A stretch of 64,000 bases of DNA from an uncultured Leptospirales bacterium (GCA_964645775.1 CAZYBU010000005.1:13339-77338); one strand, 5' to 3'; positions 17,387-43,496 are shown, counted from the first letter of the stretch. Made by a program: numbers and translations. Notes: generated by a model not told the origin, from the letters alone.

Positions 17387-17466
17387 ACGCAGTATCCTCT
17401 TGCAGCGCCTTCCCGGATGTGAAAGTATCAGGGGAGAAATCAATACTATCTTGAAAAGGAGATATC

Positions 17467-18744: not shown

Positions 18745-19142
18745 TTGTTCGGCATATAGAAGATATCATCGGAAGCGAGCGGGAGGTGGAAGCTCCCAAT
18801 GGAAACTGGGTGAGCCGCCGAATGGTTCTTGCCGATGACCGGATGGGTTTTTCTTTCCATGAAACCGTTATCCGGGCGGAAACCGAGACCCATATCTGGT
18901 ACAGGAACCACCTTGAGGCCGTCTACTGCGTGGAAGGGATTGGTGAGCTTGAAACCGTAAAGGATTCAGCGGTCTATCCCATAGAGCCGGGTGTTATGTA
19001 CGCCCTGGATAAGCATGATGAGCATTATCTTCGCGCATTTGACAATGATATGAGGCTCATCTGCGTATTTAACCCGGCGATAACCGGTAAAGAAGTTCAC
19101 AGGGAGGATGGTTCCTATCCTCCGCCGGAAGAGACGGAATAA
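18741..19142 (+). CDS. ectC: Ectoine synthase
   Basis: [16 protein letters not shown]... cupin protein. Its TTG start overlaps the ectB stop (TTGA). Confidence 0.9.
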
Positions 19143-19153
19143 GAGGAACAGGC

Positions 19154-20518
19154 ATGGGTAATGATATAGTCTGCAAGTTCGGAGGCACTTCGCTATCCAG
19201 CGCCGAACAGATAGAGAAGGTACGCAGGATAGTGGCCGATGACAGAAGAAGAAATTACGTGGTTGTCTCAGCCCCGGGACGCCAGAATCCGGGAGAGACG
19301 AAGATAACGGACCATCTCCACAATATCGCCACAGAGGGCGCCCACTGCAGGGGGGACGGAATTTCGGCTGATGACAGCGCCCGGTTTGTCCAGGAACGGT
19401 TTTCATCGATTATAAACGACCTGGGGATCGAAGGCGATGACATACGTAAAAACCTGGCAGAGGATCTTCGAATAAATATGACCGGTGAGAGAAAGATCGA
19501 TTATCTCGCATCAAGGGGTGAGCATTATAATGCCAAGATCATAAGCCGGTACTTCACGAGCAAGGGGATGAAGGCGGAAGAGCAGCTTCCAGAAGAGATA
19601 GGATTCGTGACGACAGATAAATTCGGTGACGCTTCGATCCTTCCCGAAACCTATGGGAACATCCGCGACATGGAAGATAATGACATAATTTCCGTGATTC
19701 CTGGATATTACGGTATAACCCGGGATGATGATATTGCCGTCCTATCTCGGGGAGGGTCAGACCTTACGGCCGGGGAGGTCGCCTATGCCATCGACGCGGT
19801 CCTGTACGAAAACTGGACTGATACCGATGGCATTTACCAGGTAGATCCCCGGCTCATACCTGGAGCGGGTATCATACCCAATCTCACTTATAAGGAGATA
19901 CGGCTCCTCTCCTCCCAGGGGTTTAATGTCTTTCATTATGACGCCATGATGAATTGCCGGAGGAAGAACATCCCCATACGAATCAGGAACACCAATAACC
20001 TGCAGGCGGAAGGAACCATGATTGTGGATGAGAGGGTGCCCAACGAAGCGGTCGTGGGGATCGGCAGGCTGGACAATATGGCCTATGTCTATATTGAGAA
20101 GTTCATGATGGGCGAAGAGATCGGTTTCACGCGGGAGTTGCTCCAGATATTCAAGGAATATGATATAAATACCTACCACTATCCCACGGACAGGGACGAT
20201 ATCGCTATTATCGTCGACCAGGATGATCTCATGGGTAAGACCTCTTATCTGAAGGAGGAGATCGAAAAGGTCTTGAAACCGGATACCGTGGATATCAAGT
20301 ATAATCTGTCGGTTATTTCACCGGTAGGTCTCGGTATGAAAGATCACCCGGGGATACTGGCGCGGGCGGCCAGCGCCTTCCGGGACCGTAACATCAATAT
20401 TGATATTGTTGTACAGGGACCCGCCCAGATCAGTTTCCATTTCGGCATACACGGGTATTTCGGCGATGATGGACTCAAGGCCCTCTATGAAAACCTTATA
20501 GAGAACCCCGATATTTAG
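19154..20518 (+). CDS. ask: Aspartate kinase (ectoine-cluster-associated)
   Basis: VCKFGGTSL N-terminus, GGSDLTA motif and C-terminal ACT region, directly after ectC. Confidence 0.85.
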   Translation: MGNDIVCKFGGTSLSSAEQIEKVRRIVADDRRRNYVVVSAPGRQNPGETKITDHLHNIATEGAHCRGDGISADDSARFVQERFSSIINDLGIEGDDIRKNLAEDLRINMTGERKIDYLASRGEHYNAKIISRYFTSKGMKAEEQLPEEIGFVTTDKFGDASILPETYGNIRDMEDNDIISVIPGYYGITRDDDIAVLSRGGSDLTAGEVAYAIDAVLYENWTDTDGIYQVDPRLIPGAGIIPNLTYKEIRLLSSQGFNVFHYDAMMNCRRKNIPIRIRNTNNLQAEGTMIVDERVPNEAVVGIGRLDNMAYVYIEKFMMGEEIGFTRELLQIFKEYDINTYHYPTDRDDIAIIVDQDDLMGKTSYLKEEIEKVLKPDTVDIKYNLSVISPVGLGMKDHPGILARAASAFRDRNINIDIVVQGPAQISFHFGIHGYFGDDGLKALYENLIENPDI

Positions 20519-21480
20519 CTTTCATTTTTCCGGATTACACCCGGAGGGATAGACCCGTCAGGGTCACCGTCAGGGTCACCGTCAGGGTCAGACCCTCCCG
20601 AGATAAAGCGGTATCCATGCGTTTTAATGCCATGATCCTTCAACTCGGTAAAAAGTCTCTCTCTTAGTTCGGACCGGAGGGTCCATGCGTTGTAGAACTT
20701 TGTCCAGATAGCGACCCAGCATTCTGTCGATTCAGGATGCATATCCATTACCCAGAAACTGGGTTCTTCAACCGGATTGGTCAGTTCATGGTTGCGGGTA
20801 ATCTCAAGAGCAATTTCTCTGGCCAGCTCAAGGTTGGCGTCCGGGGCAACATGGAATGTGATGTAGGTCCACTGATCGCCGTTCTCCAGAGAATAGTTGA
20901 TAAATTCCTTTTTTAAGAAGCTGCTGTTGGGTATAATATATCTTCTCCAGTCCCAGATCTTTATGACTGTATGGCTCAGGGTAATATCCTCTACGGTTCC
21001 GTACTGTTTATCGATATAGATTGTGTCTCCGGTATTGATTTGCCGTGAAAAAGAGATTACCACGCCGGAAATAACGTTCTCGATCAGGGGACGAGCCGCT
21101 ATGCCGAGAAGGACAGCGAAGGCTGTTGAAAGCAGGGAGAGGACCGTTGTCGACATGGTTCCAAGGAAAGGAGCCATAAGGGCCAGTATCCACACCAGGG
21201 TTAAAAGGAAATAGAACATCCTCCGGATGATGCTGAACCGGTTTATGGTAGACTCTATGGCGTTCATTCGCGCCTGACGTTGATTGAAGCGGGCGGGGGT
21301 TCCTTCAGAAAGGGGAGAGAACTCTTTCTGGGCCTTCAACTCCATCCGTCTTCTCTGCTCCGTGTTTTCAATAAACCTGCGGAGTAACCAGAAGAGTAAA
21401 GGGCCCAGAAGACCAATCATGCCCAGATAGAGGATAGTATCATAACCGATTGTTGATATGATTAAACGGAGAAAATCCAT
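20515..21480 (-). CDS. MscS-family mechanosensitive channel with a repetitive acidic tail
   Basis: TM segments are followed by the MscS beta-domain (GDTIYIDKQYGTVEDITLSHTVIKIWD). The C-terminus reads GGSDPDGDPDGDPDGS. Confidence 0.8.
   Translation of the reverse strand: MDFLRLIISTIGYDTILYLGMIGLLGPLLFWLLRRFIENTEQRRRMELKAQKEFSPLSEGTPARFNQRQARMNAIESTINRFSIIRRMFYFLLTLVWILALMAPFLGTMSTTVLSLLSTAFAVLLGIAARPLIENVISGVVISFSRQINTGDTIYIDKQYGTVEDITLSHTVIKIWDWRRYIIPNSSFLKKEFINYSLENGDQWTYITFHVAPDANLELAREIALEITRNHELTNPVEEPSFWVMDMHPESTECWVAIWTKFYNAWTLRSELRERLFTELKDHGIKTHGYRFISGGSDPDGDPDGDPDGSIPPGVIRKNES
20557..20592. repeat. Three tandem 12-nt units (GTCAGGGTCACC x2 + GTCAGGGTCAGA)
   Basis: Read directly. 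It encodes the DPDG repeats of the MscS tail and runs into a GGGTCAGACCC copy. Confidence 0.9.
20585..20595. repeat. GGGTCWGACCC palindrome copy (W=A)
   Basis: Exact 11-mer in the MscS tail, decoded G-S-D-P. It is part of the 13-bp palindrome AGGGTCAGACCCT. Confidence 0.95.
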
Positions 21481-21576
21481 ATCAGGAAACAGTTCTGCTC
21501 CTTTTGTTTAGCATTGATAATTAAGACAATCCGACGTTGGCATGTACGTACAGTATAATCTTTGTATAATCCAGTA

Positions 21577-22854
21577 TCAAGGTTTTTTCTCAGATAGGAC
21601 CGAACCCTTCAGATACTGACCGGTCCAGGTCAGTCGAACGGTAAAGAACCTGTTCCGTTCCAGAGGAACATCCGTTTGCACGGGCAGATAGTACTCCGTG
21701 TGACCGGTACTGCCATCCTGCCGAATCTGCTCAGTCAAAAGCCATGCTTTTCGTCCATGAAAGCCAGCATGGTAGGCTCTCTTTTGATCCGCATAGAGAT
21801 CAATAAGTTCCCTGCTTCTACGGATTTTTACCTCCTCTGGTACAGTATCTTTCATCTGATAGGCGGGAGTGCCGGGCCGGGGAGAAAACCGGAAAGTGTG
21901 AACATGGGTAAAATTTGCCTTCCGGACAAGATCAAGGGTCAGAGCAAAGTCTTCGTCATCCTCTCCGGGAAACCCCGTGATGATATCTGTTGTGAGATTG
22001 AAATCGGGTGAAATCTTCCTGATTTTCTGAACAATACGCAGGTAATCGTCCCGGCTGTACCCTCTTTTCATGCGAGAGAGAATTCTGTCACTTCCGCTTT
22101 GCAGAGATAGGTTCATGTGATGTACTATGCCATCCTCTCCCATCAAGGGGGTCAGACCCTCAGGATAATAACGTGGGGAGATGGAGGGAATATGGATGCG
22201 ACAATCCTTGCGGAGAGGAAGAAGGGCTTCAACGAGGCCTGCCAGGTCCCTTGATCCATCTTTGTACTGACCTGTCTGTACGCCGGTCAGAATAACTTCC
22301 TTAGTTCCATGCTCAACCAGCTTATTGAACTCTTCAAGTATACTATGCATTGGACGACTGACCGGTTTACCTCTCAGATAGGGGATAAGGCAGTAGGAAC
22401 AGAAAGAGTTGCAGCCGTCCTGTATCTTCAGGTTGATCCTGTTTCTTCGGGCATCCAGGGGAGAAGCGAAACCGAAACGATTTCCTTTTATACTATTCAG
22501 ATCAGATGGGTCAATTTTACCGTTGATTATTCCTGGGATAAGATGTTTCCGGTCATTCGATAGGTGCAGGATACCATCTCGCATACCCTCTTTATCGGAG
22601 CCGCATCCGGCAAGTATGATAAGTCCGCCATGAGACATTGCTCTTCTGGCGCGATACAAAAGGTTCCGGGTCTTGCGTTCACTTCGTAGAGTGACTGCGC
22701 ATGAATTAATAATACAGATCGTTGCTTCCCGTCGGGAATCAACGATCCGATGGCCATCCTGAATAAGGGAAGTACGGATGGATTCAATCTCGGACTGGTT
22801 CAGCCTGCAACCGATGGATGATATGTGTATCCTTTTCATTTTTGGTGGGGCCAT
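21577..22854 (-). CDS. mtaB: Radical-SAM methylthiotransferase (MiaB/MtaB family)
   Basis: N-terminal UPF0004 cysteines (GCRLNQ, NSCAV), the radical-SAM CxxxCxxC motif (CNSFCSYC) and a C-terminal TRAM-like region. Confidence 0.8.
   Translation of the reverse strand: MAPPKMKRIHISSIGCRLNQSEIESIRTSLIQDGHRIVDSRREATICIINSCAVTLRSERKTRNLLYRARRAMSHGGLIILAGCGSDKEGMRDGILHLSNDRKHLIPGIINGKIDPSDLNSIKGNRFGFASPLDARRNRINLKIQDGCNSFCSYCLIPYLRGKPVSRPMHSILEEFNKLVEHGTKEVILTGVQTGQYKDGSRDLAGLVEALLPLRKDCRIHIPSISPRYYPEGLTPLMGEDGIVHHMNLSLQSGSDRILSRMKRGYSRDDYLRIVQKIRKISPDFNLTTDIITGFPGEDDEDFALTLDLVRKANFTHVHTFRFSPRPGTPAYQMKDTVPEEVKIRRSRELIDLYADQKRAYHAGFHGRKAWLLTEQIRQDGSTGHTEYYLPVQTDVPLERNRFFTVRLTWTGQYLKGSVLSEKKP
22149..22159. 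repeat. GGGTCWGACCC palindrome copy (W=A)
   Basis: Exact 11-mer in mtaB, decoded G-L-T. Confidence 0.95.
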
Positions 22855-22969
22855 TTGATGGGTTCATTGATGGGGCCAGACCCTGGCGCCAGAATAGTAT
22901 GTGTAAAAAATACGTGCTCTAATAAAAATTAGCTGATTGTGATAGAGTAAAACCTACCTGAACGTGATG

Positions 22970-22980
22970 GGGTCAGACCC
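22970..22980. repeat. GGGTCWGACCC palindrome copy (W=A), intergenic
   Basis: Exact 11-mer between mtaB and cobB, within TGATGGGGTCAGACCCT. Confidence 0.95.
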
Positions 22981-23003
22981 TTATTCTGGCAAGTTTTTTA
23001 ATC

Positions 23004-23033
23004 TTGACAGAAAGCCCGATAAAAGAGTAGTAT
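23004..23033 (+). promoter_or_regulatory. Candidate sigma70-type promoter for the sirtuin gene
   Basis: TTGACA (23004-23009), 18 nt, TAGTAT (23028-23033). Confidence 0.35.
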
Positions 23034-23066
23034 TATCTGATAATAATCAGTCATGTGAAGGAAAAT

Positions 23067-23822
23067 ATGGTTCCCAGTAGTGAAATAGAAAAGGCAGCGG
23101 ATGCAATAATCAAATCGAACAGGACAGTCGCCTTTACCGGAGCAGGAGTTTCTGTAGAGAGTGGTATTCCCCCATTTCGCGGAGAAAACGGTATCTGGAA
23201 CAAGTATGATCCCACTGTCCTTGATATCTCGTATTTCCATAGCAATCCTGATGAGTCTTGGAAAATTATTAAAGACCTGTTTTATGATTTCTTCGGCTCC
23301 GCAAAACCAAATAAGGCTCATGAAGTCCTTGCATGGATGCAGGAAAAGGGTCTTCTTCATGCAGTAATCACCCAGAACATTGATAATCTGCATCATGAGG
23401 CTGGCAATACTGAAATATATGAATTTCATGGAAACAGCCGTATCCTGGTCTGCATTTCATGTCAGGAACGTGTCGATGCCGTAGAGGAGGTATTAGCCAT
23501 TCTTCCCCCTAAATGCGAGAAATGTGGGGGATTATTGAAACCGGATTTTATTTTTTTCGGTGAAGCGATACCAGAACCTGCGCGGTCGCTCTCTTTTGCA
23601 GAAGTTGATGAGGCTGATTGTTTTATAGTTATCGGAACTACTGGGGAAGTAATGCCCGCTTCCATGATCCCCCGGCTAGCAAAACAAAAAGGCGCTATAA
23701 TAATTGAGGTTAACGTATTACCTTCGCATTATACGGCAGACGTGACGGATATCTTTCTTGAAGGCAGGGCCACAGAAATGATGGATCAGCTTCATGAGGC
23801 CCTTGAAGCTCGTCTTCCCTGA
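23067..23822 (+). CDS. cobB: NAD-dependent protein deacylase (Sir2/CobB)
   Basis: GAGVSVESGIPPFRG, QNIDNLH, and Zn-ribbon cysteines (CISCQ...CEKCGG). AAGGA precedes ATG 23067, whereas the track start is GTG 23055. Confidence 0.85.
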   Translation: MVPSSEIEKAADAIIKSNRTVAFTGAGVSVESGIPPFRGENGIWNKYDPTVLDISYFHSNPDESWKIIKDLFYDFFGSAKPNKAHEVLAWMQEKGLLHAVITQNIDNLHHEAGNTEIYEFHGNSRILVCISCQERVDAVEEVLAILPPKCEKCGGLLKPDFIFFGEAIPEPARSLSFAEVDEADCFIVIGTTGEVMPASMIPRLAKQKGAIIIEVNVLPSHYTADVTDIFLEGRATEMMDQLHEALEARLP

Positions 23823-23836
23823 AAAGGTGTAACAAT

Positions 23837-25306
23837 CTATTTAAGATTGCTGTTTTTCCCTTTTATCGATTGTTGGATCAGGTCAGATTTAAGCTTCCTC
23901 AACCTATCCGAAAGGCTGACTTTGTATGTATGAGGAGAAATCAGTCGTTTATATGTTCTGTCCAACTGTTTTAGTCCCTCCCTTCTTCTGTTTGATAGTT
24001 CTTCCAGGGAATAATTATTGGAGGGTCTGACCCCATCCTCCATTACTTTTTCCAACAGGACTTCAACGCGATCATAAGATTTCATGGTAAAACCAGCTAC
24101 CTCAATTGTAGGATGATTGAATCGAACAGGTTTTCCCTCTGATGTATCTCTTTGAATATCCTCACGTTCTTCTTCGAGGATAATAAGATCAGCCTGCATC
24201 TCGTTATTCTTATAAAAACGTAATATATTCTTTCTTCCAGGATTGGTTGTCTTCTCAGATTCATTGGAGATCTTAATGCAGGGTTCAAGGGTATCACCTG
24301 TGTCCCGGGAGACAATTTTATAAACACCGGTTAATGAGGGTTCTCCCTCAGCTGTTATCAGTTTTGTACCGACTCCATAGGCATCAATTGGAGCTCCACT
24401 GTTTTTTAGCTGGTGAATAATCCACTCATCCAGTTCATTGGAGACATATATTTTTACATTGTGTAAACCAGCTTCATCCAGCATTCTGCGTCCTTCAAAA
24501 CTGAGATATTCCGGGTCCCCGCTATCCAAACGAATACCGAGGGTCTGACCCTCATAATGATCCATCTCATTAAATACCTTGATTGCATTGGGGATTCCTG
24601 ATTTCAGCGTGTCATAGGTGTCTACCAGAAGAATACAGGTATCCGGATTGAGTTTTGAGTAGGAGCGAAATGATTCGTATTCGTTTTGAAAACTCATAAT
24701 CCAGCTGTGCGCCATCGTTCCCTTAACAGGTACAGCAAGGTCCATGCCAGCACGTGTATTGGATGTTGATGATACGCCTCCAATGAAAGATGCGCGTGTG
24801 GCAGAAAGTGCACCATCAAATCCCTGTGCCCGGCGAAGACCAAATTCCAGGACAGGTTTACCTCCGGAAGACTCTGACACTCTTGCTGATTTGGTGGCGA
24901 TCAGAGTTTGAAAGTTAATGCAATTAAGCAGCATACTTTCAATGTATTGAGCTTCCAGAAGAGTTCCTTCAACCCGGATAAGAGGTTCGTTTGGGAAAAC
25001 GACGGAACCCTCCGGTGCAGCAAAAATATTGCCTGAGAATCTAAAAGATGAAAGAAAATCAATAAATTCATCCTCAAAAGTGTTTAGACTGGCCAGATAA
25101 TTGATTTCCTCTTCGCCAAATGTGAGATTTGACAGGATCTCAAGTAAGGGATTGAGACCGGCAAAAATTGCGTATCCTCCTTTAAAAGGGGCTCTACGAA
25201 AAAACATTTCGAAGATAGCCTTTCTTTCTCGAAGAAAGCGATAATAACCGGCCATCATGGTCAATTCATAAAAATCAGTAAGAAGGGAGAATTTTGAAGT
25301 AAGCAT
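23837..25306 (-). CDS. pncB: Nicotinate phosphoribosyltransferase
   Basis: LLTDFYELTMMAGY N-terminus and GTMAHSW motif, at 489 aa. Confidence 0.85.
   Translation of the reverse strand: MLTSKFSLLTDFYELTMMAGYYRFLRERKAIFEMFFRRAPFKGGYAIFAGLNPLLEILSNLTFGEEEINYLASLNTFEDEFIDFLSSFRFSGNIFAAPEGSVVFPNEPLIRVEGTLLEAQYIESMLLNCINFQTLIATKSARVSESSGGKPVLEFGLRRAQGFDGALSATRASFIGGVSSTSNTRAGMDLAVPVKGTMAHSWIMSFQNEYESFRSYSKLNPDTCILLVDTYDTLKSGIPNAIKVFNEMDHYEGQTLGIRLDSGDPEYLSFEGRRMLDEAGLHNVKIYVSNELDEWIIHQLKNSGAPIDAYGVGTKLITAEGEPSLTGVYKIVSRDTGDTLEPCIKISNESEKTTNPGRKNILRFYKNNEMQADLIILEEEREDIQRDTSEGKPVRFNHPTIEVAGFTMKSYDRVEVLLEKVMEDGVRPSNNYSLEELSNRRREGLKQLDRTYKRLISPHTYKVSLSDRLRKLKSDLIQQSIKGKNSNLK
24023..24033. repeat. GGGTCWGACCC palindrome copy (W=T)
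   Basis: Exact 11-mer in pncB, decoded G-V-R-P. Confidence 0.95.
24541..24551. repeat. GGGTCWGACCC palindrome copy (W=T)
   Basis: Exact 11-mer in pncB, decoded G-Q-T. It extends to the 15-bp palindrome GAGGGTCTGACCCTC. Confidence 0.95.
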
Positions 25307-25307
25307 A

Positions 25308-25925
25308 TTAGAGATCCGTGGTCTTGATAATTGCTGCTCCCTTATGTTTCATCGTTTCCAGGGCTTGATTTACAGAACCTGCGGGTGTATCGATGCCGCG
25401 GCAGGCGTCTTCCAGTAAATTTACTGAGAATCCAAGTTCAATGGCATCAATGACGGAATAGAGAACACATACATCCAGGGCCAGACCCCCAATGAAAAGA
25501 TGCTGAATATTCAGTGTTTTAAGGTATCCTTCAAGCCCCGTAAGAGTAACGCCGTCATTTTCTTTGAATGCTGAATATGAGTCAATAGAAGGATTCCAAC
25601 CTTTACGGATAATTAGCTTGATGGGGTCAGACCTGAGTTCTGGATGAAACTCTGCCCCTTTGCTTCCCTGGACACAATGTTCTGGCCAGAGTATCTGGTC
25701 AATACCTTCCAGATTTATAGTATCAAAGGGTTCTTTACCTGAATGGGATGAAGCAAAAGACACATGTCCTTTTGGATGCCAGTCTTGGGTCGCTATAATT
25801 GAATCAAAGTGATCCATGGATCGGTTAATGGGAGCTACGGTTTTATCGCCTTCCGGGACTTCCAGTGCACCTCCTGGACAAAAATCATTCTGTAAATCAA
25901 TAATCATTAGCGCAGTTTTATTCAT
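25308..25925 (-). CDS. pncA: Nicotinamidase (isochorismatase-family)
   Basis: ALMIIDLQNDFCPGG, WHP.GH and the catalytic LALDVCV cysteine region. Its stop is 1 nt from the pncB start. Confidence 0.85.
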   Translation of the reverse strand: MNKTALMIIDLQNDFCPGGALEVPEGDKTVAPINRSMDHFDSIIATQDWHPKGHVSFASSHSGKEPFDTINLEGIDQILWPEHCVQGSKGAEFHPELRSDPIKLIIRKGWNPSIDSYSAFKENDGVTLTGLEGYLKTLNIQHLFIGGLALDVCVLYSVIDAIELGFSVNLLEDACRGIDTPAGSVNQALETMKHKGAAIIKTTDL

Positions 25926-25998
25926 GATGATTTCCTAAATAGGATTAGTTATATACTATCAGTGTACTGTTAGTTTTGGAAGCTGTCAAGGCTACAGA

Positions 25999-26009
25999 GG
26001 GTCAGACCC
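25999..26009. repeat. GGGTCWGACCC palindrome copy (W=A), intergenic
   Basis: Exact 11-mer about 100 nt upstream of the Y1 transposase start. Confidence 0.95.
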
Positions 26010-26080
26010 ATACTCTTATAAAGCGCAAATTTGAATTTTTTAAGAAAACCCGGTAAAAATTTTTTTATTTTGGATTCTCC

Positions 26081-26122
26081 GGTCGTGTAACCAGTGAACA
26101 GGGAGGATCAAATGACACGACC
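26081..26122 (+). promoter_or_regulatory. Stem-loop enclosing the RBS and start codon of the Y1 transposase gene
   Basis: GGTCGTGT (26081-26088) is the exact reverse complement of ACACGACC (26115-26122). The 26-nt loop holds GGGAGG and ATG 26112. Confidence 0.45.
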
Positions 26123-26684
26123 ACTTCGCATTCAAAGGCCCGATCTGACTTATCATGTTGTTTCCAGATGTGTTGAAGGAATGAATCTTCTGGATACTGA
26201 TTTTTGGAAGGGAATACTTTCAGAAACAGTGAAGAGAGCGAAAAGTAAGTACAATTTTAATTGTAACTATGCTGTCATATTGGATAATCACTTCCATTTT
26301 TTGATTCACACACTGGAGGATGGCGAATCGATCTCCAGAATTATGCAATATATTAAGTCCCGATTTGCTGAGACATATAATAGAATTATGAATCGAAAGG
26401 GTGTTTTCTGGGCGGGCCGATATAAAGATAAAATTGTTGAGTTCGCGAAAAAACCTGTTGAGTATCTTTTAACTCTGATCTGGTATCTTGGTTATAATCC
26501 GGTTCGAGCAGGAAAGACTCATGATCCTCTCAAGTACAGATACAGTTCTTTCAAGTATTATATGAAGGGCAAGGTTGAGGTGGATGATTTTATATCACTT
26601 CATCCCATGTTTATGTCTTTATCCGATGATCATAACAAGAGAATTGAGATACTAAATCTGTTCAAATATGCGCAACTGGAGTAA
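26112..26684 (+). CDS. IS200/IS605-type Y1 (HUH) transposase, RAYT-like
   Basis: HUH motif in LDNHFHFLIHT and the catalytic-Tyr helix LIWYLGYNPVRAGK (the RAYT-type Y..NPV.AG signature). GGGAGG lies 5 nt before ATG 26112. Confidence 0.8.
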   Translation: MTRPLRIQRPDLTYHVVSRCVEGMNLLDTDFWKGILSETVKRAKSKYNFNCNYAVILDNHFHFLIHTLEDGESISRIMQYIKSRFAETYNRIMNRKGVFWAGRYKDKIVEFAKKPVEYLLTLIWYLGYNPVRAGKTHDPLKYRYSSFKYYMKGKVEVDDFISLHPMFMSLSDDHNKRIEILNLFKYAQLE

Positions 26685-26813
26685 TGAAAATGTTGAGATT
26701 CCTGGTGAATTCTGGAAGTTCAGAAAGTAACAAAGCCTTTTAACCGTATTTGGATAAGGAGGATGTGCTACAATATTTTTGTTGGAGTAATATAAGTTCT
26801 ATGTGGGGCAACC

Positions 26814-27962
26814 TTATTCCATATAAACTCTTGGAACACGGGAGCTGATATTACATACCATTTCATAGGGAATGGTTCCAGTTATTTCGCAGAGTTCCTC
26901 CAGAGGTATTATTTTTTTATTAATTTTACCAAAAAGAAGAACATCATCACCGTTAAAAGCAGTGCCATCCGGACCGATGTCTACCATAACCTGGTCCATA
27001 CAAATGCTTCCAGCAACCCTGTAGCGTTTACCATTTATTATGACCGGAGCGTGATTTGAAAGTAGTCTGCTGTATCCATCTCCGTATCCAACTGGTAGGG
27101 TTACAATTCGGGTCTGACCCTCAGTTCTATAAGTATGGTTATAGCTTATACCTGTTTCTGGAGGGCATACCTTGAAATATGAAACCTTTGTTTTCAATGT
27201 CATTACAGGTTGCAGCTTCATGCCGGCATATTGAACATCAGGTAAATATCCTTTTGGATCATAGCCATATAACATGATTCCGGGCCTGACTGTATTAAAG
27301 TGAGATTCTGGGTGATATAGAACTCCAGCAGAGTTGGCAATATGGATCATTTCAGGATGATTTTTTTTGCTTTCCATATAATTGATAACTTCCTGGAATC
27401 GTTTAATCTGCAACAATGTGAATTCTCTGTCTGATTCACCTTTTGCCAAATGTGAAAATATACCCTTTATCTCCAGGTGGGTCTGACCCCAGGCATGGTC
27501 AATAAACTGGTCCGCATGGTACCAGTGGACCCCGATCCTCTCCATACCTGTATCAATTTTTAAATGGACAAGTGCTCTTTTTCCCGTCTCAGCAGCTTTC
27601 CGGGCTATGGCCTCAGTTTTATCACGTGAAGAACTTGTGATTTCAATATCATATTCGATAAATGTTTCAATCTGTTCGGTGTTTATGGCTCCGAGAACAA
27701 GAATGGGGGCTGTGATTCCCCGTTGCCTCAGATAAACCCCCTCCTCCAGATAGGCTACACCAATATAATCTGCTCCCTCTTCAAGTAAGAGCCTGCTTAC
27801 TGCTTCCAGTCCGTGCCCATAAGCGTTAGCCTTGACCATTGGCATCGTCATGACTCCTGGACCAGCCATTGCTCTGGCTATGGCGAAGTTGTTCCTGAGG
27901 GCTGAAAGAGATACCTCAGCCCGGGTCGGTCTATTATGATAGGCGGTATCGATAGAAGACAT
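26814..27962 (-). CDS. alr: Alanine racemase
   Basis: PLP-lysine motif VKANAYGHG and the C-terminal ICMDQVMVD region. Confidence 0.9.
   Translation of the reverse strand: MSSIDTAYHNRPTRAEVSLSALRNNFAIARAMAGPGVMTMPMVKANAYGHGLEAVSRLLLEEGADYIGVAYLEEGVYLRQRGITAPILVLGAINTEQIETFIEYDIEITSSSRDKTEAIARKAAETGKRALVHLKIDTGMERIGVHWYHADQFIDHAWGQTHLEIKGIFSHLAKGESDREFTLLQIKRFQEVINYMESKKNHPEMIHIANSAGVLYHPESHFNTVRPGIMLYGYDPKGYLPDVQYAGMKLQPVMTLKTKVSYFKVCPPETGISYNHTYRTEGQTRIVTLPVGYGDGYSRLLSNHAPVIINGKRYRVAGSICMDQVMVDIGPDGTAFNGDDVLLFGKINKKIIPLEELCEITGTIPYEMVCNISSRVPRVYME
27110..27120. repeat. GGGTCWGACCC palindrome copy (W=T)
   Basis: Exact 11-mer in alr, decoded G-Q-T. Confidence 0.95.
27479..27489. repeat. GGGTCWGACCC palindrome copy (W=T)
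   Basis: Exact 11-mer in alr, decoded G-Q-T. Confidence 0.95.
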
Positions 27963-28101
27963 CTGTTCCTTCCATGTTTGATTATACTTGTTAGTGATTT
28001 CAGGATGGTCCCGGGTCTACAACAACTTTTTGGAGATAATACGTCGGATAATCTATGTTATAATAGCGTTTATTTCCTTCAGATATTCTAATAATAAGCA
28101 A

Positions 28102-28112
28102 GGGTCTGACCC
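28102..28112. repeat. GGGTCWGACCC palindrome copy (W=T), intergenic
   Basis: Exact 11-mer whose right half is tandemly duplicated. Confidence 0.95.
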
Positions 28113-28132
28113 TCCAATTCTGACCCTCCAAT
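28105..28132. repeat. Exact tandem duplication of a 14-nt unit TCTGACCCTCCAAT
   Basis: Read directly (28105-28118 and 28119-28132). The first unit is the right half of a GGGTCTGACCC copy. Confidence 0.95.
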
Positions 28133-28163
28133 TCCAGTATGCTAATAATGCTAATTGCATCAA

Positions 28164-28586
28164 TTAATTTGAATTATCGTTCATCGTGTCATCTTTTCTT
28201 CGTTTTCCATCCCCCTCCGGGAAGAGCATCTTTTCCACCGCCCTGCGGGTGGCCCATTGTAGAAAGATTTTTGAATGTCGAGCCCCTGCAAGGTATACCC
28301 CCAGCATAAGGGTCAGATGAGAGATCCCGTAGGTAAGGGGGCCCCCCACAACAATGAGCAGTGGTTCACGATACAGCGCGGCTGCTATAGCTGCCAGTGT
28401 TATCAGAGGCCATCCTATCACGTAACTGAATAGAATCAGGGATAATCCCAAGATGATTCTGGGACCCGGTTTTTCCCGGAAGGCATTAAGGTCCGCCTTT
28501 CCTTCTACGGCTTCTCTAACGAAGGAAAACCCCATGAGACAATGCCCCATCCTGCGTAAAAACGTATTTAGCTTTTCTTTCGTCAT
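28164..28586 (-). CDS. Small membrane protein, function unknown
   Basis: A 140-aa ORF with three hydrophobic segments. I recognise no family. Confidence 0.45.
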   Translation of the reverse strand: MTKEKLNTFLRRMGHCLMGFSFVREAVEGKADLNAFREKPGPRIILGLSLILFSYVIGWPLITLAAIAAALYREPLLIVVGGPLTYGISHLTLMLGVYLAGARHSKIFLQWATRRAVEKMLFPEGDGKRRKDDTMNDNSN

Positions 28587-28866
28587 AGTTTTTGTTTGAA
28601 GCTTTTTTCTTATGCGATTACAATCATATGTTTCTTTCCCCGGATTAAAATGGTATCCTCCAGGTGAATTTCAGAAATCTTTCGTATCTACGGTACTTAT
28701 CCCTGAGCTTCTTTCCCAATTCTACAATCTATTATTCTCCTGTGCAAAACACTTTTTCAGCTACAGCGGTCTTTACCATAATTTATGATTGAATAAATAC
28801 CTGATCCTTTCTGTAATGGAAGCCGTAAAGTTTTATAAAGTGATCAGTTTTGACGGTTTTTATAGA

Positions 28867-30438
28867 ATGAATAGAAAATGTGATATTCAGAACCTGCTTA
28901 TTATAGATGAGACACCCCTCGCCCTGGAAGATGTTGTCGATGTCGCAAGAGGTAACTGTGAAATCGAGTTAAGCCGTAATGAGCGATTCCTCGGTATTCT
29001 GGAAAATTCCCGTCGTAAACTCCTTGATGCGATGGAGAAGGGTGTCCCGGTATATGGCGTAACCACAGGATACGGCAAGTCCTGCGGCAAGAGATTGGAC
29101 TCTTCCCTTGCCCTTATCAATGGGAAAAACCTTGTCCGTTTTCATGGTTGCGGTACCGGTGAGGTCTTGGGCAGGATTGAATCCCGCGCTGTCCTTATCT
29201 GCCGAATCGCTTCTCTTGTACAGGGGTACTCTGGAGTGAGCCATGGTCTCCTTCAGGCCCTCGTCGATCTTTTACGAAAGGATGTCGTACCTGTTATCCC
29301 TTCGGAAGGTTCCGTTGGCGCATCCGGAGACCTGACGCCCATGTCCTATGTGGCGGCGGTCCTTTCCGGGGAACGTGAGGTCTTTTTTCGGGGCGGACGA
29401 ATGTCGGCCGATCGTGCCCTTAAAGAGGCGGGTCTGACCCCCTATGAACTGAGGTCCAAGGAGGCCCTGGCCATCATGAACGGTACCACGGTTATGACCG
29501 GCCTCGCGGCCCTGGCTGCCTGGCGTGCCGGCAATCTTCTTGACAGCGTTGTACGGGCTACGGCCCTTTCGGTCCATGCCGTGCAGGGGAACAGGCGGCA
29601 CTTTCATCCCACGATCTCCCGGTCCCGGCCTTATGGCGGTCAGATACGTGTTTCCGACATGTTGAACAGGTTTCTCGACTCCAGTACTTCGGAAAGTCAA
29701 CTGGAGTCCCCGGCCCCGGAAGCCCTTCAGGACCCTTATTCCCTAAGGTGCTCTCCCCAGATCGCGGGTGTTCTTGGCGATACCCTGACTTGGGTCTGTC
29801 AATGGATCGAAATAGAGATTAATAGCGCTAATGATAATCCTTTGGTCGATCCCGATACGGGTGAAATCCTCATGGGAGGCAATTTCTACGGTGGCCATAT
29901 CTCCCAGGCCATGGATTCACTGAAGAGCAGTATTGCTTCTGTAGCGGATATGAGTGACCGGCAGGTTGCCCTTCTGGTCAACCCGAACGTAAACCGGGGC
30001 CTGCCGGCAGACCTGGTTGCCGAAAAGAAAGATGACTCCACCCATCACGGTTTTAAGGCTCTCTCCATCGCGGCTTCGGCATTGACGGCTGAGGCATTGA
30101 AAAACACCATGCCGGCCGCTTCCTTCTCCCGCTCCACGGAGTCCCACAATCAGGACAAGGTGAGCATGGGGACCATCGCGGCCCGGGACACTATGCGTAT
30201 TCTGGAACTGACGGCCAGGGTCGCCTCTATTCATATACTCACGGCTGTTCAGGCCGTTGAACTGCGGGGGAACTGCCACGAACGTCCTGAAATTGAAAGG
30301 ATGGTCCGGGAAGTACGGGCTGTAAGTGAACCGGTTCTCGAAGATCGGCCCCTGGACAGTGATATTGAAGAGGTGGCCCGGCGTATACTCGACAACAGAC
30401 TTTTCGGGATGGATAATGACCAGGAGACCAATAGTTAG
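28867..30438 (+). CDS. MIO-dependent aromatic amino-acid ammonia-lyase (HAL/PAL/TAL family)
   Basis: The MIO-forming triad is in GSVGASGDLTPMSY, and the family N-terminus is L.IDETPLALEDVVDVARG. The start is uncertain (ATG 28867, or TTG 28789 per the track). Confidence 0.85.
   Translation: MNRKCDIQNLLIIDETPLALEDVVDVARGNCEIELSRNERFLGILENSRRKLLDAMEKGVPVYGVTTGYGKSCGKRLDSSLALINGKNLVRFHGCGTGEVLGRIESRAVLICRIASLVQGYSGVSHGLLQALVDLLRKDVVPVIPSEGSVGASGDLTPMSYVAAVLSGEREVFFRGGRMSADRALKEAGLTPYELRSKEALAIMNGTTVMTGLAALAAWRAGNLLDSVVRATALSVHAVQGNRRHFHPTISRSRPYGGQIRVSDMLNRFLDSSTSESQLESPAPEALQDPYSLRCSPQIAGVLGDTLTWVCQWIEIEINSANDNPLVDPDTGEILMGGNFYGGHISQAMDSLKSSIASVADMSDRQVALLVNPNVNRGLPADLVAEKKDDSTHHGFKALSIAASALTAEALKNTMPAASFSRSTESHNQDKVSMGTIAARDTMRILELTARVASIHILTAVQAVELRGNCHERPEIERMVREVRAVSEPVLEDRPLDSDIEEVARRILDNRLFGMDNDQETNS
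29430..29440. repeat. GGGTCWGACCC palindrome copy (W=T)
   Basis: Exact 11-mer in the ammonia-lyase gene, decoded G-L-T. Confidence 0.95.
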
Positions 30439-30850
30439 CCACAGCATTGAGATGCAGGTCCCCTTTTATGATCTGGATCCCATGCAGATAGTCTGGCACG
30501 GAAATTACCTCAAGTACTTTGACCGGGCCCGGGCCGCTCTTTTCAGTCATATTAACGTGGATCTCTATGATATTTATAACGAAACGGAGTATCTCTTCCC
30601 CATTATCCGTTCCTCGGTTAAGCATATTACGCCTTTAATGTATAACGATCGTATCCTTTGCACGGCCCATTTGATGCAGGTGGATTACAAGATAGTCTTT
30701 GATTTTGAGCTCAGGCGGCTTAAAGATGATAGGGTCTGCGCAAAAGGGAGAAGTGAACAGGTGGCTATTCGAAACATGGATGGTGAAATGCTTTTTCGGA
30801 TACCCGGGTCTGTCCGGGAAAGAATACTTAATGCAGGAGAAGTCTCATGA
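30416..30850 (+). CDS. Hot-dog fold acyl thioesterase (4HBT/YbgC type; ApeK-like)
   Basis: VPFYDLDPMQIVWHGNYLKYF motif. The start could also be ATG 30452. Confidence 0.75.
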   Translation: MTRRPIVSHSIEMQVPFYDLDPMQIVWHGNYLKYFDRARAALFSHINVDLYDIYNETEYLFPIIRSSVKHITPLMYNDRILCTAHLMQVDYKIVFDFELRRLKDDRVCAKGRSEQVAIRNMDGEMLFRIPGSVRERILNAGEVS

Positions 30851-32589
30851 TAACCATGAACCGAAGCGGTATCATTTCCGGAGTGGAAAGGGTTGCCGCA
30901 TGGAAAGACCTTTTGAATGATATTAATGTCTTCCCTGTCGCCGACGGTGACACGGGAGTTAATCTTGTTACAAGCCTCTCTCCCCTTCGGCTTCTGGAGG
31001 TTGAGGCTGACGACGTCATCGACAGGATGCTGATCGCGGCCCGTGGGAACTCAGGTAACATCGCCACCCTCTTTTTTTCCGGATTCCTTGAAACCTGGCC
31101 CGTGGAGAACTATCCCCTCGCGCTTGAGGCGGGAAGGGATAGGGCCTATCGGGCCGTTTCGAGCCCGGTTCCCGGTACAATGTTGTCATTCTTTGATGAT
31201 CTCTGCGATAGTTTCAGCGAGCACAGGCCCGATATTAACCAGGGCGCGGAAGGAAAGGTTATAGCCGACCTCGTGGAGAGCGTTAAGAACACCACATCCC
31301 GGCTTCCCGCTCTTCAGGACGCGGGTGTGATTGATGCCGGCGCCCTGGGAATGTTCATCTTTTTCGAGACCTTTTTCCTCTCACTGGCCGGAAAAGAGGA
31401 AGGGTATGTCTCTATCCTTGATGAATTCAGTGAGGGTCTGACCCTCAAGGCAGGATACCGGGCTGAATCGGAAATGGGCTTCTGTGTAGATCTAGTACTT
31501 GAAGCAGGAGAGAATACATCTGACCTTGAAGAAAAAGTAAGCGCTCTGGGAGAGAGTGGTATCGTTATTCGGGAGAAGGACAGGGTGAAGGTCCATCTTC
31601 ATTCCGATGACCTGGAGAGTGTGCGGCGGGACATGGAGTCCCTGGGTACAATCGTCAACTGGTCCGTGGATGACATTGATGCACAGGTTCGGTCCTTCGG
31701 AAGAAACCAGACAGGCCGGATCCATATCGTCACCGATGCGGCTGGGTCCCTGACCATGGATCAGTCCCGTTCCCTGGGTTTGACTCTCCTGAATAGCTAT
31801 CTAAATATAGGAGACACCTCCAAACCGGAGACCTACTTCGATCCCGCTGAACTTTATCGGGCAATGGATCGAGGTATTCCCGTATCTACATCCCAGGCCT
31901 CAATCTTTGAAAGGCATCACTTTTACAGCAGTCTGTGCGAACGGTTTGAACAGGTCCTCTATCTTTCCGTCGGTTCCGTGTTTACAGGCAATTATCAGAC
32001 GGCTCTGGAGTGGAAAGAGAAGAACGATACCGGGGATACCTTCCGTGTTATCGATTCTACGGCGGCATCGGGACGTCTTGCCGTCTTTTCCCTTGCCGTT
32101 CAGCGGTTCGCGGCCGGGGACACTTCCCTGGACGAAGTTGAACAATACGCCCTTGATATCCGGGATCATTGCTCGGAGTATCTCTTCCTGAATCAGCTGA
32201 AGTTCCTCGCGGCCGGAGGGCGGCTTTCAAAAGGCAGTGCCTTTTTCGGCGATATGCTCAGAATGAAACCGGTCATCTCTCCCCTGGCGGAGGGAGCTAA
32301 GAAAATAGACGTTGTCCATACCTTTGAGCAGCAGGTGGATTACGCCCTGGACCGTGTTAGTAAAGAGCTTCCCCTCACTTCCCGTCCCCTGGTTCTTCTG
32401 GAGTATTCGGACAACAAAGAGACAGTGGAGGGTCTCATTTATGATAAGATTTCCCGCCTTCTCCCCCAGGCAGAGATTTTAACCGGCCCACTGTCATTGA
32501 CTTCCGGAGCCCATATGGGTCCCGGCACCTGGGGGATCGCATGGGTGCCGGAGGAATGCCTCCCGGAAGCACGCAGAGGAAGAGAATAA
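30847..32589 (+). CDS. DAK2-domain / DegV-domain fusion protein (single-chain fatty-acid-kinase-like)
   Basis: The N-terminal DAK2 motifs are FPVADGDTGVN and AARGNSGN. The C-terminal ~280 aa are DegV-like (IHIVTDAAGSL, STSQAS, LAAGGRLSKG, LRMKPVIS). The ATGA overlap with the thioesterase stop indicates coupling. Confidence 0.8.
   Translation: MITMNRSGIISGVERVAAWKDLLNDINVFPVADGDTGVNLVTSLSPLRLLEVEADDVIDRMLIAARGNSGNIATLFFSGFLETWPVENYPLALEAGRDRAYRAVSSPVPGTMLSFFDDLCDSFSEHRPDINQGAEGKVIADLVESVKNTTSRLPALQDAGVIDAGALGMFIFFETFFLSLAGKEEGYVSILDEFSEGLTLKAGYRAESEMGFCVDLVLEAGENTSDLEEKVSALGESGIVIREKDRVKVHLHSDDLESVRRDMESLGTIVNWSVDDIDAQVRSFGRNQTGRIHIVTDAAGSLTMDQSRSLGLTLLNSYLNIGDTSKPETYFDPAELYRAMDRGIPVSTSQASIFERHHFYSSLCERFEQVLYLSVGSVFTGNYQTALEWKEKNDTGDTFRVIDSTAASGRLAVFSLAVQRFAAGDTSLDEVEQYALDIRDHCSEYLFLNQLKFLAAGGRLSKGSAFFGDMLRMKPVISPLAEGAKKIDVVHTFEQQVDYALDRVSKELPLTSRPLVLLEYSDNKETVEGLIYDKISRLLPQAEILTGPLSLTSGAHMGPGTWGIAWVPEECLPEARRGRE
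31434..31444. repeat. GGGTCWGACCC palindrome copy (W=T)
   Basis: Exact 11-mer in the DAK2-DegV gene, decoded G-L-T. Extends to the 15-bp palindrome GAGGGTCTGACCCTC. Confidence 0.95.
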
Positions 32590-33809
32590 TGAGAAGGGTC
32601 GTAATAACAGGTGTGGGAGTTCGTTCGCCCCTGGGTCACACAGGGGACACACTTTTTGACGCCATTCTTGACAACCGTTCCGGTATCCGCGCCATGCCTG
32701 AATGGAAGAGTATAGATCACCTGAACTGCCATGTGGCGGGTTCCTGCGAGGATATCGATGAGAAAGCTATCCCCAGGAACCACAGAAGGACCATGGGGCG
32801 TGTCGCTGTCCTGGCCGGCCTCTCGGCCATGGACGCTGTCCGGGACGCCGGTCTTTCCGACGAGGAGGTTTCTTCCCCCGGTTGCGGCGTCTCTTACGGT
32901 TCCACGGAGGGGAGCAGCAGCGTCCTGGAGGAGTTCCTTTCTAAAATACTCAGCGACTACAGCCTCAAGGGCCTTGCCTCCTCTACGTACCTTAAATTCA
33001 TGAGCCATACCTGCGCGGCCAATATTGCCGGTATGTTCCAGAGCCGGGGACCGGTTATCGCCTCCTGTACCGCCTGTGTGGCCGGTTCCCAGGGAATCGG
33101 TTTCGGATATGAGGCTATCCGGGAGGGAAGGGCCGATGTCATGATAACCGGGGGCGCGGAAGAGCTCCACTTTGTCCACGCAGGCGTTTTCGATGTCATG
33201 AGGGCCACTTCCACAGGCTACAACGGCCGGCCGGAGGAGACGCCCCGTCCCTTTGACCGGGATCGGGACGGGCTGGTTGTCTCCGAGGGGAGCGGCTGCC
33301 TTATTTTGGAAGAGTACGAACGGGCCCGGTCCCGGGGTGCGAAAATTTACGGTGAGGTCCGGGGATACGGGACCAATTGCGACGGCTTTCACCTGACCCG
33401 TCCCAGCAGCGAGGGGATGTCCGGAGTCATGAAGAAGGCCCTGGCGGACGCTTCCCTGAACCCTGAAGATATTGGTCACATCAACGCCCACGCAACGGCC
33501 ACAGAGGCGGGAGACGTGGCGGAATCGGAAGCGGTCCATTCCCTCTTCGGTGACAGGGTCCCTGTTACCGCCTTCAAGGGATACCTGGGCCATTCCCTGG
33601 GTGCCTGCGGCGCCATAGAATCGATCATCTCTCTCTGGATACTGGCCCGGGGAGTGATTCCCCCGTCCCGTAACCTCTCCACTCCTGATCCGGAGTGCGC
33701 TCCCGTAGCTCACGTGAGAGAGATTATTGAAGAGAAACCTTTGCTTGTCATGAATAATAACTTTGCCTTCGGGGGTATAAATACCTCTCTGATCTTTTCT
33801 ACTCTATAG
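32589..33809 (+). CDS. Beta-ketoacyl-ACP synthase (FabB/F-like; ApeR-like)
   Basis: VVITGVGVRSPLG N-terminus, active-site SCTACVAGSQ, the H...H pair (FHLTRP, NAHATAT) and NNNFAFGGINTSLIF. TAATG overlap with the upstream gene. Confidence 0.85.
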   Translation: MRRVVITGVGVRSPLGHTGDTLFDAILDNRSGIRAMPEWKSIDHLNCHVAGSCEDIDEKAIPRNHRRTMGRVAVLAGLSAMDAVRDAGLSDEEVSSPGCGVSYGSTEGSSSVLEEFLSKILSDYSLKGLASSTYLKFMSHTCAANIAGMFQSRGPVIASCTACVAGSQGIGFGYEAIREGRADVMITGGAEELHFVHAGVFDVMRATSTGYNGRPEETPRPFDRDRDGLVVSEGSGCLILEEYERARSRGAKIYGEVRGYGTNCDGFHLTRPSSEGMSGVMKKALADASLNPEDIGHINAHATATEAGDVAESEAVHSLFGDRVPVTAFKGYLGHSLGACGAIESIISLWILARGVIPPSRNLSTPDPECAPVAHVREIIEEKPLLVMNNNFAFGGINTSLIFSTL

Positions 33810-33823
33810 GCGCCGTCTCTTTT

Positions 33824-34552: not shown

Positions 34553-34562
34553 AGGAACCGCT

Positions 34563-39813: not shown

Positions 39814-39816
39814 TTG

Positions 39817-40728: not shown

Positions 40729-40736
40729 GCGCTACC

Positions 40737-42864: not shown

Positions 42865-42874
42865 TCATTTCTCC

Positions 42875-43492: not shown

Positions 43493-43496
43493 GGGG

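Follow-up and report, generated by a model that had tools for sequence, protein, structure and literature searches.

A short word clustered around a RAYT-like Y1/HUH gene in an uncultured Leptospirales bacterium: a candidate recognition site

A 64 kb stretch of DNA from an uncultured Leptospirales bacterium (GCA_964645775.1, CAZYBU010000005.1:13339-77338; hereafter the window) contains 17 exact copies of the 11-mer GGGTCWGACCC, which are concentrated around a single gene for a protein resembling the REP-associated tyrosine transposases (RAYTs; REP, repetitive extragenic palindrome). Homologues of this gene at seven other loci are ringed by a word that differs from that of the window in one base. 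We propose that this RAYT clade recognises the word, that the window carries a one-base dialect of it, that the protein acts mainly in cis, and that the copies arose by substitution and were constrained afterwards. Taken as a whole, this model is considered fairly probable.

Clustering of the word around RAYT-like genes

The 17 copies of GGGTCWGACCC in the window compare with 0.11 expected (mean of 100 shuffles, with a maximum of 2), and the extended palindrome GAGGGTCWGACCCTC, a 15-mer, was found three times against an expectation of 0. An earlier note on this DNA had listed 17 palindrome copies, and exactly the same positions were recovered here. Sixteen of them lie between 20585 and 47729, the 17th is at 6498, and there is none to the right of 47729. 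The tightest span with 16 of the 17 copies measures 27.1 kb (P = 2e-4 by simulation). Eleven copies are located within 6 kb of the Y1/HUH gene at 26112-26684, and the mean distance from copy to gene is 6.9 kb (P = 5e-6). These two tests bear out the clustering described in the note, namely 16 of 17 copies at 20.5-47.8 kb and 11 within about 6 kb of the gene. The gene and the copies are as follows.

6498-6508, - strand: outlier copy, intragenic, encoding R-G-Q-T-L; 19.6 kb left of the RAYT gene; also present in assembly L124
20585-20595, + strand: copy in an MscS-like gene, encoding G-S-D-P; terminates a 12-nt in-frame tandem repeat
22149-22159, + strand: copy in a radical-SAM (MiaB-like) gene, encoding E-G-L-T-P
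22970-22980, + strand: intergenic copy in the gap between the radical-SAM and SIR2 genes
24023-24033, - strand: copy in the nicotinate phosphoribosyltransferase (NAPRTase) gene, encoding G-V-R-P
24541-24551, - strand: copy in the NAPRTase gene, full 15-mer palindrome, encoding E-G-Q-T-L
25999-26009, + strand: intergenic copy GGGTCAGACCC, nearest to the RAYT gene and ending 103 nt before its ATG; kept in the sister species despite indels in its flanks
26112-26684, + strand: RAYT-like Y1/HUH gene, 190 amino acids, with Pfam Y1_Tnp, NHFHF and WYLGYNPVRAG
27110-27120, - strand: copy in alr, arisen through synonymous changes in a G-Q-T-R already present
27479-27489, - strand: copy in alr, G-Q-T where relatives have E-L-P; variable segment, no indel
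28102-28112, - strand: intergenic copy; after it comes a 14-nt tandem duplication in which TCTGACCC recurs at 28119
29430-29440, - strand: copy in an aromatic ammonia-lyase gene, encoding A-G-L-T-P
31434-31444, - strand: copy in a Dak2/DegV gene, full 15-mer, encoding E-G-L-T-L
35849-35859, - strand: copy in the MMPL-methyltransferase gene, encoding A-G-L-T-L
36076-36086, + strand: copy in the MMPL-methyltransferase gene, encoding G-V-R-P
37972-37982, - strand: copy in a lipid-A-type acyltransferase gene, full 15-mer, encoding E-G-L-T-L
41759-41769, + strand: copy in an AMP-binding enzyme gene, encoding E-G-L-T-L
47719-47729, + strand: rightmost copy, in a polysaccharide deacetylase gene, encoding G-V-R-P

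The density of the copies fell monotonically with distance from the RAYT gene, from 1.17 per kb at 0-3 kb to 0.67 at 3-6 kb, 0.25 at 6-12 kb, 0.15 at 12-22 kb, and 0 beyond 22 kb, where the window still extends over 19 kb. Most of the copies (14 of 17, or 82%) are intragenic, as the earlier note had stated, and 10 of these 14 encode G-[L/Q]-T in the frame nG-GGT-CWG-ACC-Cnn. Only five one-mismatch variants of the 11-mer were present, against the 17 exact copies. No pattern was observed in the orientation of the copies relative to the gene strand or GC skew. An Rfam scan gave two tRNAs only; therefore, no known RNA family accounts for the word. Two Logan contigs of run SRR7048223 are 100% identical to the window and a contig of the metagenome-assembled genome (MAG) GCA_963991465.1 is 99.3% identical. 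All copies in the covered parts were found in the other assemblies, and their presence in four independent assemblies indicates that they are not an assembly artefact.

A tblastn search of the window for the Y1 protein gave one locus in the 64 kb. The protein matched Pfam Y1_Tnp with 38.9 bits (cut-off, 23), and its score against the NCBIfam equivalog NF047646 REP_Tyr_transpos was 67.9 bits, under the cut-off of 80. Its HUH motif is NHFHF (H60 and H62), and Y---NP, which is the signature of class-2 TnpA-Y1 proteins (PMC6006769), is contained in W124-Y125-L-G-Y-N-P; both motifs are nearly invariant among 20 homologues. The single Y1/HUH gene with a Y..NPVRAG helix to which the note had drawn attention is thus present as one Y1_Tnp gene with WYLGYNPVRAG. 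For the AlphaFold model of the protein (predicted local distance difference test, pLDDT, 88), the best match in the PDB was 4ER8_A, which is E. coli TnpA-REP bound to a REP hairpin (E = 1.5e-7, template modelling (TM) scores of 0.63/0.71, 161 columns), and the TnpA proteins of IS608 and ISDra2 gave a TM score of about 0.45. With phmmer, no sequence relative of the protein was found in the PDB, nor was 4ER8 recovered. In a sister species, represented by the contigs L123 and L222 (1.9-kb overlap, 100% identity), 31 kb is syntenic with the window at approximately 80% nucleotide identity. The RAYT gene is syntenic there, with a ratio of nonsynonymous to synonymous divergence (dN/dS) of 0.05 at a dS of about 1.0. 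On the basis of the motifs, the fold match to 4ER8 and the dN/dS value, the protein is predicted to be a functional, divergent RAYT-type protein, and its profile scores place it in a divergent clade that is not an equivalog of the curated REP_Tyr_transpos family.

The copy nearest to the gene, which the note had placed about 100 nt upstream, ends 103 nt before the ATG, and the next copy downstream is 426 nt away, within alr. Besides the single upstream copy, no inverted or terminal REP-like repeats bracketing the RAYT gene were found in the window. A promoter scan around the gene-proximal copy gave nothing exceeding the shuffle expectation.

Seven homologue loci (L207, L208, L212, L215, L218, L220 and L221) were fetched via the RAYT gene with protein identities of 41-53%; the near-duplicate loci L209-211, L213-214, L216-217 and L219 were also returned. 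Those homologues that are named by their sources come from Spirochaetota, the GC content of the loci ranges from 33 to 62%, and the only gene common to them is the RAYT gene. L208 and L212 both belong to GCA_050298055.1; their RAYT genes are paralogues that have diverged to 72% nucleotide identity, stand in unrelated surroundings and have a word cluster each. Therefore, the family is not always single-copy. No shared terminal structures of the insertion sequence (IS) type were found for these two paralogues.

The palindrome of the window was absent from the seven loci (0 copies). Instead, they contain 5-12 copies each of GGGTCAGAGC, in total 59 in 131 kb, which differs from GGGTCAGACC of the window in a single base and is the commonest 10-mer in three of the loci. 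The consensus of the 59 copies is R-GGGTCAGAGC-M, beyond which the flanks are not conserved. Within 4 kb of the RAYT gene, 57 of the 59 copies were found (1.07 per kb), and the other 77 kb held two (0.026 per kb), which is a 41-fold difference; the permutation P values for proximity ranged from <1e-5 to 0.08 per locus. At all seven loci a copy stands 69-126 nt before the RAYT start codon in the same orientation, compared with 103 nt in the window, and in four of the seven an inverted copy follows the gene. Sixteen of the 59 copies are intragenic and 73% are intergenic. A tandem array of five copies with a 20-nt period is located at L212 6975-7064, and inverted pairs with long stems (-23 kcal/mol) occur at some loci, such as L212 7055/7097 (21-bp stem) and L215, with no conserved spacer in common. 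In the window itself, GGGTCAGAGC was found three times against 0.12 expected, each time within the 20-48 kb zone.

As background, 80 loci fetched as alr homologues (815 kb) contained no copy of the palindrome and four of the family word; a RAYT was detected among them only as a weak match at L185. The comparison of related genomes that the earlier note had suggested gave a dense family word at the loci with a RAYT and four copies in 815 kb at the alr loci. These sequence comparisons support a link between the RAYT and the word. The unusual relationship between a RAYT and a minimal palindrome that the note had raised is strengthened to the extent that every sampled homologue is ringed by a word different in one base and that the closest fold is that of TnpA-REP.

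The word could also be a genome-wide signature of the type of HIP1 or the uptake sequences of Neisseria and Haemophilus, driven by a process unrelated to the RAYT, of which the window would be a dense patch. Substitution origin, intragenic location, conservation, one-base dialects and terminator-like inverted pairs are known from uptake sequences and HIP1, and the word shares all of them, its conservation being between species. The distribution argues against this reading. One copy was found in about 36 kb of window flanks and none in another 8.7 kb on the left, the density is 41-fold higher near the RAYT at the seven homologue loci, and the gradient is centred on the gene. Hence, we regard a genome-wide signature as distinctly unlikely.

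Orientation, dialects, origin and conservation of the copies

When the 17 window copies and two copies specific to the sister species were oriented by their central A, all 19 had a purine at position -1, in agreement with 57 of the 59 family copies, whereas the mirror position +1 was a pyrimidine in just 12 of 19. From this asymmetry, the functional unit is probably the oriented 10-12-nt word R-GGGTCAGACC. A change from G to C at position 9 of the family word creates self-complementarity, and the palindrome therefore looks like a lineage-specific, secondary by-product of a dialect switch. The association of the word with the RAYT in the earlier note thus stands, while the palindrome as its unit probably gives way to the oriented word. 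A third dialect, GGGTCAGAGTAAA, occurs at L129 2812-6268 (also in L127, L128 and L132) as five copies plus variants in a single orientation; in these relatives, a more distant lineage with 65% Alr identity, the copies are situated in intergenic DNA around alr. The switch among GAGC, GACC and GAGT would be a natural one-base specificity switch and offers a direct experimental handle. The related words in the window are listed below.

19754-19764, + strand: oriented 10-mer GGGTCAGACCt in ask; same in the sister species
21936-21945, + strand: family-type word GGGTCAGAGC in the radical-SAM gene; kept in the sister species
22873-22883, + strand: one-mismatch variant GGGCCAGACCC, intergenic; exact word there in the sister species
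25478-25488, + strand: one-mismatch variant GGGCCAGACCC in pncA; same in the sister species
25624-25634, + strand: oriented 10-mer GGGTCAGACCt in pncA; same in the sister species
34774-34783, - strand: family-type word GCTCTGACCC in the MMPL gene; palindromic GGGTCTGACCC there in the sister species
43494-43503, + strand: family-type word GGGTCAGAGC at the junction of the LolA and SDR genes; kept in the sister species

The same data bear on the idea that the palindromes are double-stranded sites of a dimeric protein other than the RAYT, either a regulator of NAD salvage or aryl-polyene synthesis or a chromosome marker like ParB/parS or MatP/matS. A perfect palindrome with a central W, conserved and mostly intragenic in a cluster of 27 kb, is what such a protein would be expected to leave, and parS and matS sites are likewise clustered, conserved and often intragenic. 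However, the homologous word is non-palindromic in the seven other loci, the window copies are asymmetric in orientation, and no DNA-binding gene is common to the loci, whose neighbouring genes differ everywhere. This reading is therefore held to be quite improbable. A gene for a ParB-like protein or regulator was not found in the scanned parts of 20-48 kb, and no DNA-binding gene besides the RAYT is shared by the loci. A ParB/parS-like centromere was dropped, with no partition or DNA-binding gene in the scanned parts of the cluster and a non-palindromic homologous word.

The origin of the copies was examined by comparison with relatives. The Alr of the window can be aligned with those of relatives (58-65% identity) without net indels. 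At 27110, relatives already have K/R-G-Q-T-R (e.g., AAG GGC CAG ACA CGC) and synonymous changes completed the word, and at 27479, E-L-P-G of a variable segment was changed to G-Q-T-H. Base changes between the window and the sister species were likewise found at 22873 (GGGCCAGACCC versus GGGTCAGACCC), at 34773 (GGCTCTGACCC versus GGGTCTGACCC) and at the site L222 10140 (AGGCCAAACCG versus GGGTCAGACCC), where five of the 11 bases are different. Since these are substitutions at fixed positions with no indels, transposition of an element is excluded as the source of the window copies, which, as judged from the alignments, arose in place by substitution.

It follows that copies of a classical mobile element (REP, REPIN or miniature inverted-repeat transposable element) inserted by transposition are a very improbable explanation. 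The homologue loci do offer some likeness to such elements, as 73% of their copies are intergenic and some form inverted pairs (-23 kcal/mol) or tandem arrays like those of bacterial interspersed mosaic elements and REPINs. This explanation is contradicted in the window by the codon alignment. Genes contain 14 of the 17 window copies, and no indel distinguishes these from homologues; moreover, the unit measures 10-12 nt, lacks a GTAG/CGTC tag and has nothing conserved past +/-1. The absence of a conserved extended REP body, which the earlier note had remarked on, is consistent with this limit.

Two short duplications were observed beside copies. The C-terminal end of the MscS-like gene (20561-20596) contains a 12-nt repeat, in tandem and in frame, that consists of AGGGTCACCGTC twice and then AGGGTCAGACCC; the two extra units are not in the sister species, so that a motif-like unit has been duplicated within a gene. 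At 28105-28132, beside the copy at 28102, TCTGACCCTCCAAT occurs twice as a 14-nt tandem duplication that is also not in the sister species, a miniature likeness of the five-copy array of L212.

The conservation of the copies was assessed in the sister species. All 15 orthologous copies (20585 to 41759) are intact there, the central base included; among 11-mers in general, the perfectly conserved fraction is only 10-11%. Every one of the 11 positions is conserved in 15 of 15 copies, and background level is reached two bases outside. Variants are unchanged as well, namely the one-mismatch or 10-mer forms at 19754, 25478 and 25624 and the family words at 21936 and 43494. None of 34 four-fold degenerate sites inside copies had changed, compared with 1199 of 2580 (46%) outside (P = 6e-10), from which it follows that what is constrained is the DNA word and not the protein. 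The copies are under strong sequence constraint, which may reflect purifying selection on a RAYT-dependent function or RAYT-dependent biased repair. In the sister species, a PAS-domain gene that the window lacks, about 1.8 kb long (L222 1513-3306), is located between alr and a small hypothetical gene, and this additional gene contains its own palindrome copy (L222 1724).

Proposed action of the RAYT-type protein

A Spirochaetota clade of class-2 Y1/HUH proteins of the RAYT or TnpA-REP type is accompanied by the signature word R-GGGTCAGAGC-M of 10-12 nt, and the 11-mer would be the dialect of this word in one lineage, changed in a single base (GGGTCAGAGC to GGGTCAGACC). The RAYT of 26112-26684 most likely recognises the word, putatively on single-stranded DNA, either directly or as a small hairpin formed by the palindrome or an inverted pair, and would bind, nick and rejoin the DNA there. 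Its action is probably mainly in cis, which would explain why the word is concentrated near the gene and thins with distance. Base substitutions would turn near-matches into new copies, which in coding DNA mostly have the frame G-[L/Q]-T, and exact words would then be kept by one of the two forms of constraint mentioned above. That a domesticated Y1/HUH enzyme keeps its own word array in the surrounding coding sequences, through substitution or short-patch conversion and with a gradient in cis, is put forward more tentatively, as a possibility that we do not hold to be the probable one.

Several points weigh against this proposal. The view of each homologue locus comprises about 10 kb on either side of the RAYT gene. 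We know of no Y1 transposase chemistry that would account for a word written into genes by substitution. In addition, the word cluster of L129 has no RAYT or remnant of one within -4.8/+10 kb; therefore, clusters can occur away from a RAYT gene. The family word alone does not fold (0 kcal/mol) and the hairpin of the palindrome is weak (-2.9 to -4.2 kcal/mol), whereas the characterised TnpA-REP requires a REP hairpin and a GTAG tag (PMC6006769).

The cluster of L129 around alr is also what would be expected if causality were reversed, that is, if the RAYT-like gene were a mobile or formerly mobile element that settled or was retained in pre-existing clusters of a word serving another host factor. 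In L132, two GGGTCAGAGC copies come right after the alr stop codon, in the place that the RAYT occupies in the window, and one genome has two paralogues in different places. Some insertion sequences are known to target REPs. Against such a history, the identity of the paralogues is only 72% and terminal IS structures common to both are lacking, the window gene stands in the same context in the sister species (dN/dS of 0.05 at a dS of about 1), the upstream copy is fixed in distance and orientation at all loci, and no other gene is common to the loci as a possible reader of the word. We consider reversed causality unlikely, and it is the chief rival of recognition by the RAYT; the genome-wide signature and the dimeric protein are less likely than it because of the gradient and the non-palindromic homologous word.

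Recognition of the word by the RAYT can be compared with known systems. HIP1 (GCGATCGC) of cyanobacteria is a short palindrome, mostly intragenic, made by substitution and conserved beyond coding constraint. The window word resembles it in its substitution origin and its conservation beyond coding constraint (codon alignment; 0/34 four-fold sites). In contrast to HIP1, which occurs about once per kb everywhere and is linked to methyltransferases, the window word is centred on one Y1 gene, and its density is not uniform as in HIP1 or uptake sequences but forms a gradient around the RAYT. The uptake sequences (Neisseria DUS and Pasteurellaceae USS; PMC2346458), which it resembles, are oriented words of 9-12 nt with one-base dialects between lineages, with intragenic copies at tolerant protein positions and inverted pairs that serve as terminators. 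They are genome-wide and belong to a competence machinery, whereas the window word is local to the RAYT gene.

The protein is like E. coli TnpA-REP (RayT/YafM; PDB 4ER8; PMC3479197, PMC6006769) in its Y1/HUH fold and its HUH and Y---NP motifs, and the arrangement is like that of the E. coli "REPtron", in which the gene is flanked by short repeat copies, often inverted. E. coli REPs are imperfect hairpins of 20-40 nt with a GTAG guide, are extragenic and number hundreds genome-wide (PMC3479197, PMC6006769). Unlike these, the window word measures 10-12 nt, has no hairpin of its own and no tag, is found around the gene and is 82% intragenic; a hairpin of 20-40 nt with a GTAG/CGTC tag in an extragenic location does not describe the window copies. 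The homologue loci, with 73% intergenic copies, tandem arrays and inverted pairs, are nearer to REPs than the window is. The system is of the RAYT type and is not a classical REP.

As in the REPIN-RAYT pairs of Pseudomonas and Enterobacteria (Bertels and Rainey; PMC3116915, PMC5581495), gene and repeat appear to be inherited vertically together, with purifying selection on the gene, and inverted doublets at some homologue loci (L212, L215) are like REPINs. REPINs are replicating units of about 100 bp that form quasispecies with many mutated copies (PMC3116915, PMC5581495). The window differs in that its copies arose by substitution, exact copies outnumber one-mismatch copies by 17 to 5, and no body or spacer is conserved; the REPIN arrangement of two inverted REPs with a spacer in a long hairpin was not found in the window. 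The window copies share with intragenic REPs and Rickettsia palindromic elements (PMC3733652) the presence of repeat-family sequence within intact protein-coding genes. Intragenic REPs are known as insertions (PMC3733652), and such elements add 20-80 amino acids, whereas in the window codons were rewritten and nothing was inserted. Some RAYT subclasses have been reported without REP-like hairpins (PMC6006769).

Literature searches for the word in any form gave unrelated primers only, and those for RAYTs in Spirochaetes gave nothing on this clade. In this literature, no report was found of a RAYT clade tied to a non-hairpin word of 10-12 nt, of such a word conserved across very different GC contents, of a density gradient centred on a RAYT gene, or of substitution-made, selectively constrained copies inside genes.

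RAYTs are widespread, and to our knowledge their cellular role and the mode in which their repeats spread have not been established. The present clade offers a simple and tractable case, with a candidate recognition word of 10-12 nt that is almost invariant from 33 to 62% GC and a spatial gradient that points to action in cis. The behaviour of the array, which is intragenic, made by substitution and constrained, differs from the known behaviour of RAYT repeats. Should the protein read the word, transposition would not be required for a repeat family to grow, and systems of this kind, among them RAYT subclasses reported as "not associated with REPs", would escape REP searches based on hairpins or 16-mers. 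The maintenance of the array by its own enzyme, if true, would be a way of propagating repeats that is new, or else a local marking of the chromosome that depends on the RAYT, and would give a first hint of the actual role of RAYTs.

Genomic setting and further observations

As an alternative to action by the RAYT, the earlier note had considered that the 20-48 kb segment came from a genomic background rich in the word. The k-mer and GC comparison that it had called for gave a divided answer. The part from 28.7 to 48 kb, with seven copies, equals the flanks in tetranucleotide usage (r = 0.96-0.97) and is not foreign in this respect, whereas the core of 20-28.7 kb (NAD salvage, RAYT, alr) has a low GC content and is somewhat distinct. 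Within the core, the block 22000-28700 comprises SIR2, pncB, pncA, RAYT and alr and has 40-44% GC against 50-56% in the flanks; the tetranucleotide correlation of 22-28 kb is 0.87-0.89. This low-GC block may have been acquired at an earlier time, and the RAYT with it. The tRNA genes found in the window are the following.

48751-48824, - strand: tRNA-Trp(CCA), about 1 kb beyond the last copy
57253-57326, - strand: tRNA-Pro(CGG)

A foreign island covering the whole 20-48 kb could find support in the distinct core and in the tRNA-Trp gene. An att-like repeat of tRNA-Trp was looked for and not found, and no integrase is present among the annotated genes. Furthermore, the 28.7-48 kb part is like the flanks in composition, the decay of the word is graded with no step, and the copies have been retained across a dS of about 1. 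The island is accordingly considered highly improbable, and the alternative in the note found no support.

The region 28789-48050 of the window is an aryl-polyene-like lipid biosynthetic gene cluster, which is syntenic in the sister species. Its genes encode an aromatic ammonia-lyase, a 4HBT thioesterase, Dak2/DegV, KAS, GT2 and an MMPL-methyltransferase fusion; an LpxL-like acyltransferase, an ApeI/FabA dehydratase, PlsY, MCAT, an AMP-ligase and an acyltransferase; and LolA, FabG, an ApeP-like protein, a double KS and a polysaccharide deacetylase. The zone rich in the motif is adjoined on its left, at 16880-20518, by an ectoine biosynthesis cluster (ectA, ectB, ectC and aspartokinase), which suggests a halophilic or osmotically stressed organism.

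A scan of a genome collection for the 15-mer gave, among the matches listed, scattered occurrences on different contigs of unrelated genomes. The sole multi-copy case among the matches listed was a Chloroflexota MAG contig (L082 183-262), with two GAGGGTCWGACCCTC copies 65 nt apart. Finally, comparison of the window with the 99.6% identical ENA contig L124 revealed a 3.4-kb indel at position 5846 (L124 3147-6589). The extra DNA of L124 carries glutathione-synthetase/RimK-like and FGase/MATCAP genes, and the genes of L124 are fragmented, suggesting indel errors of long reads.

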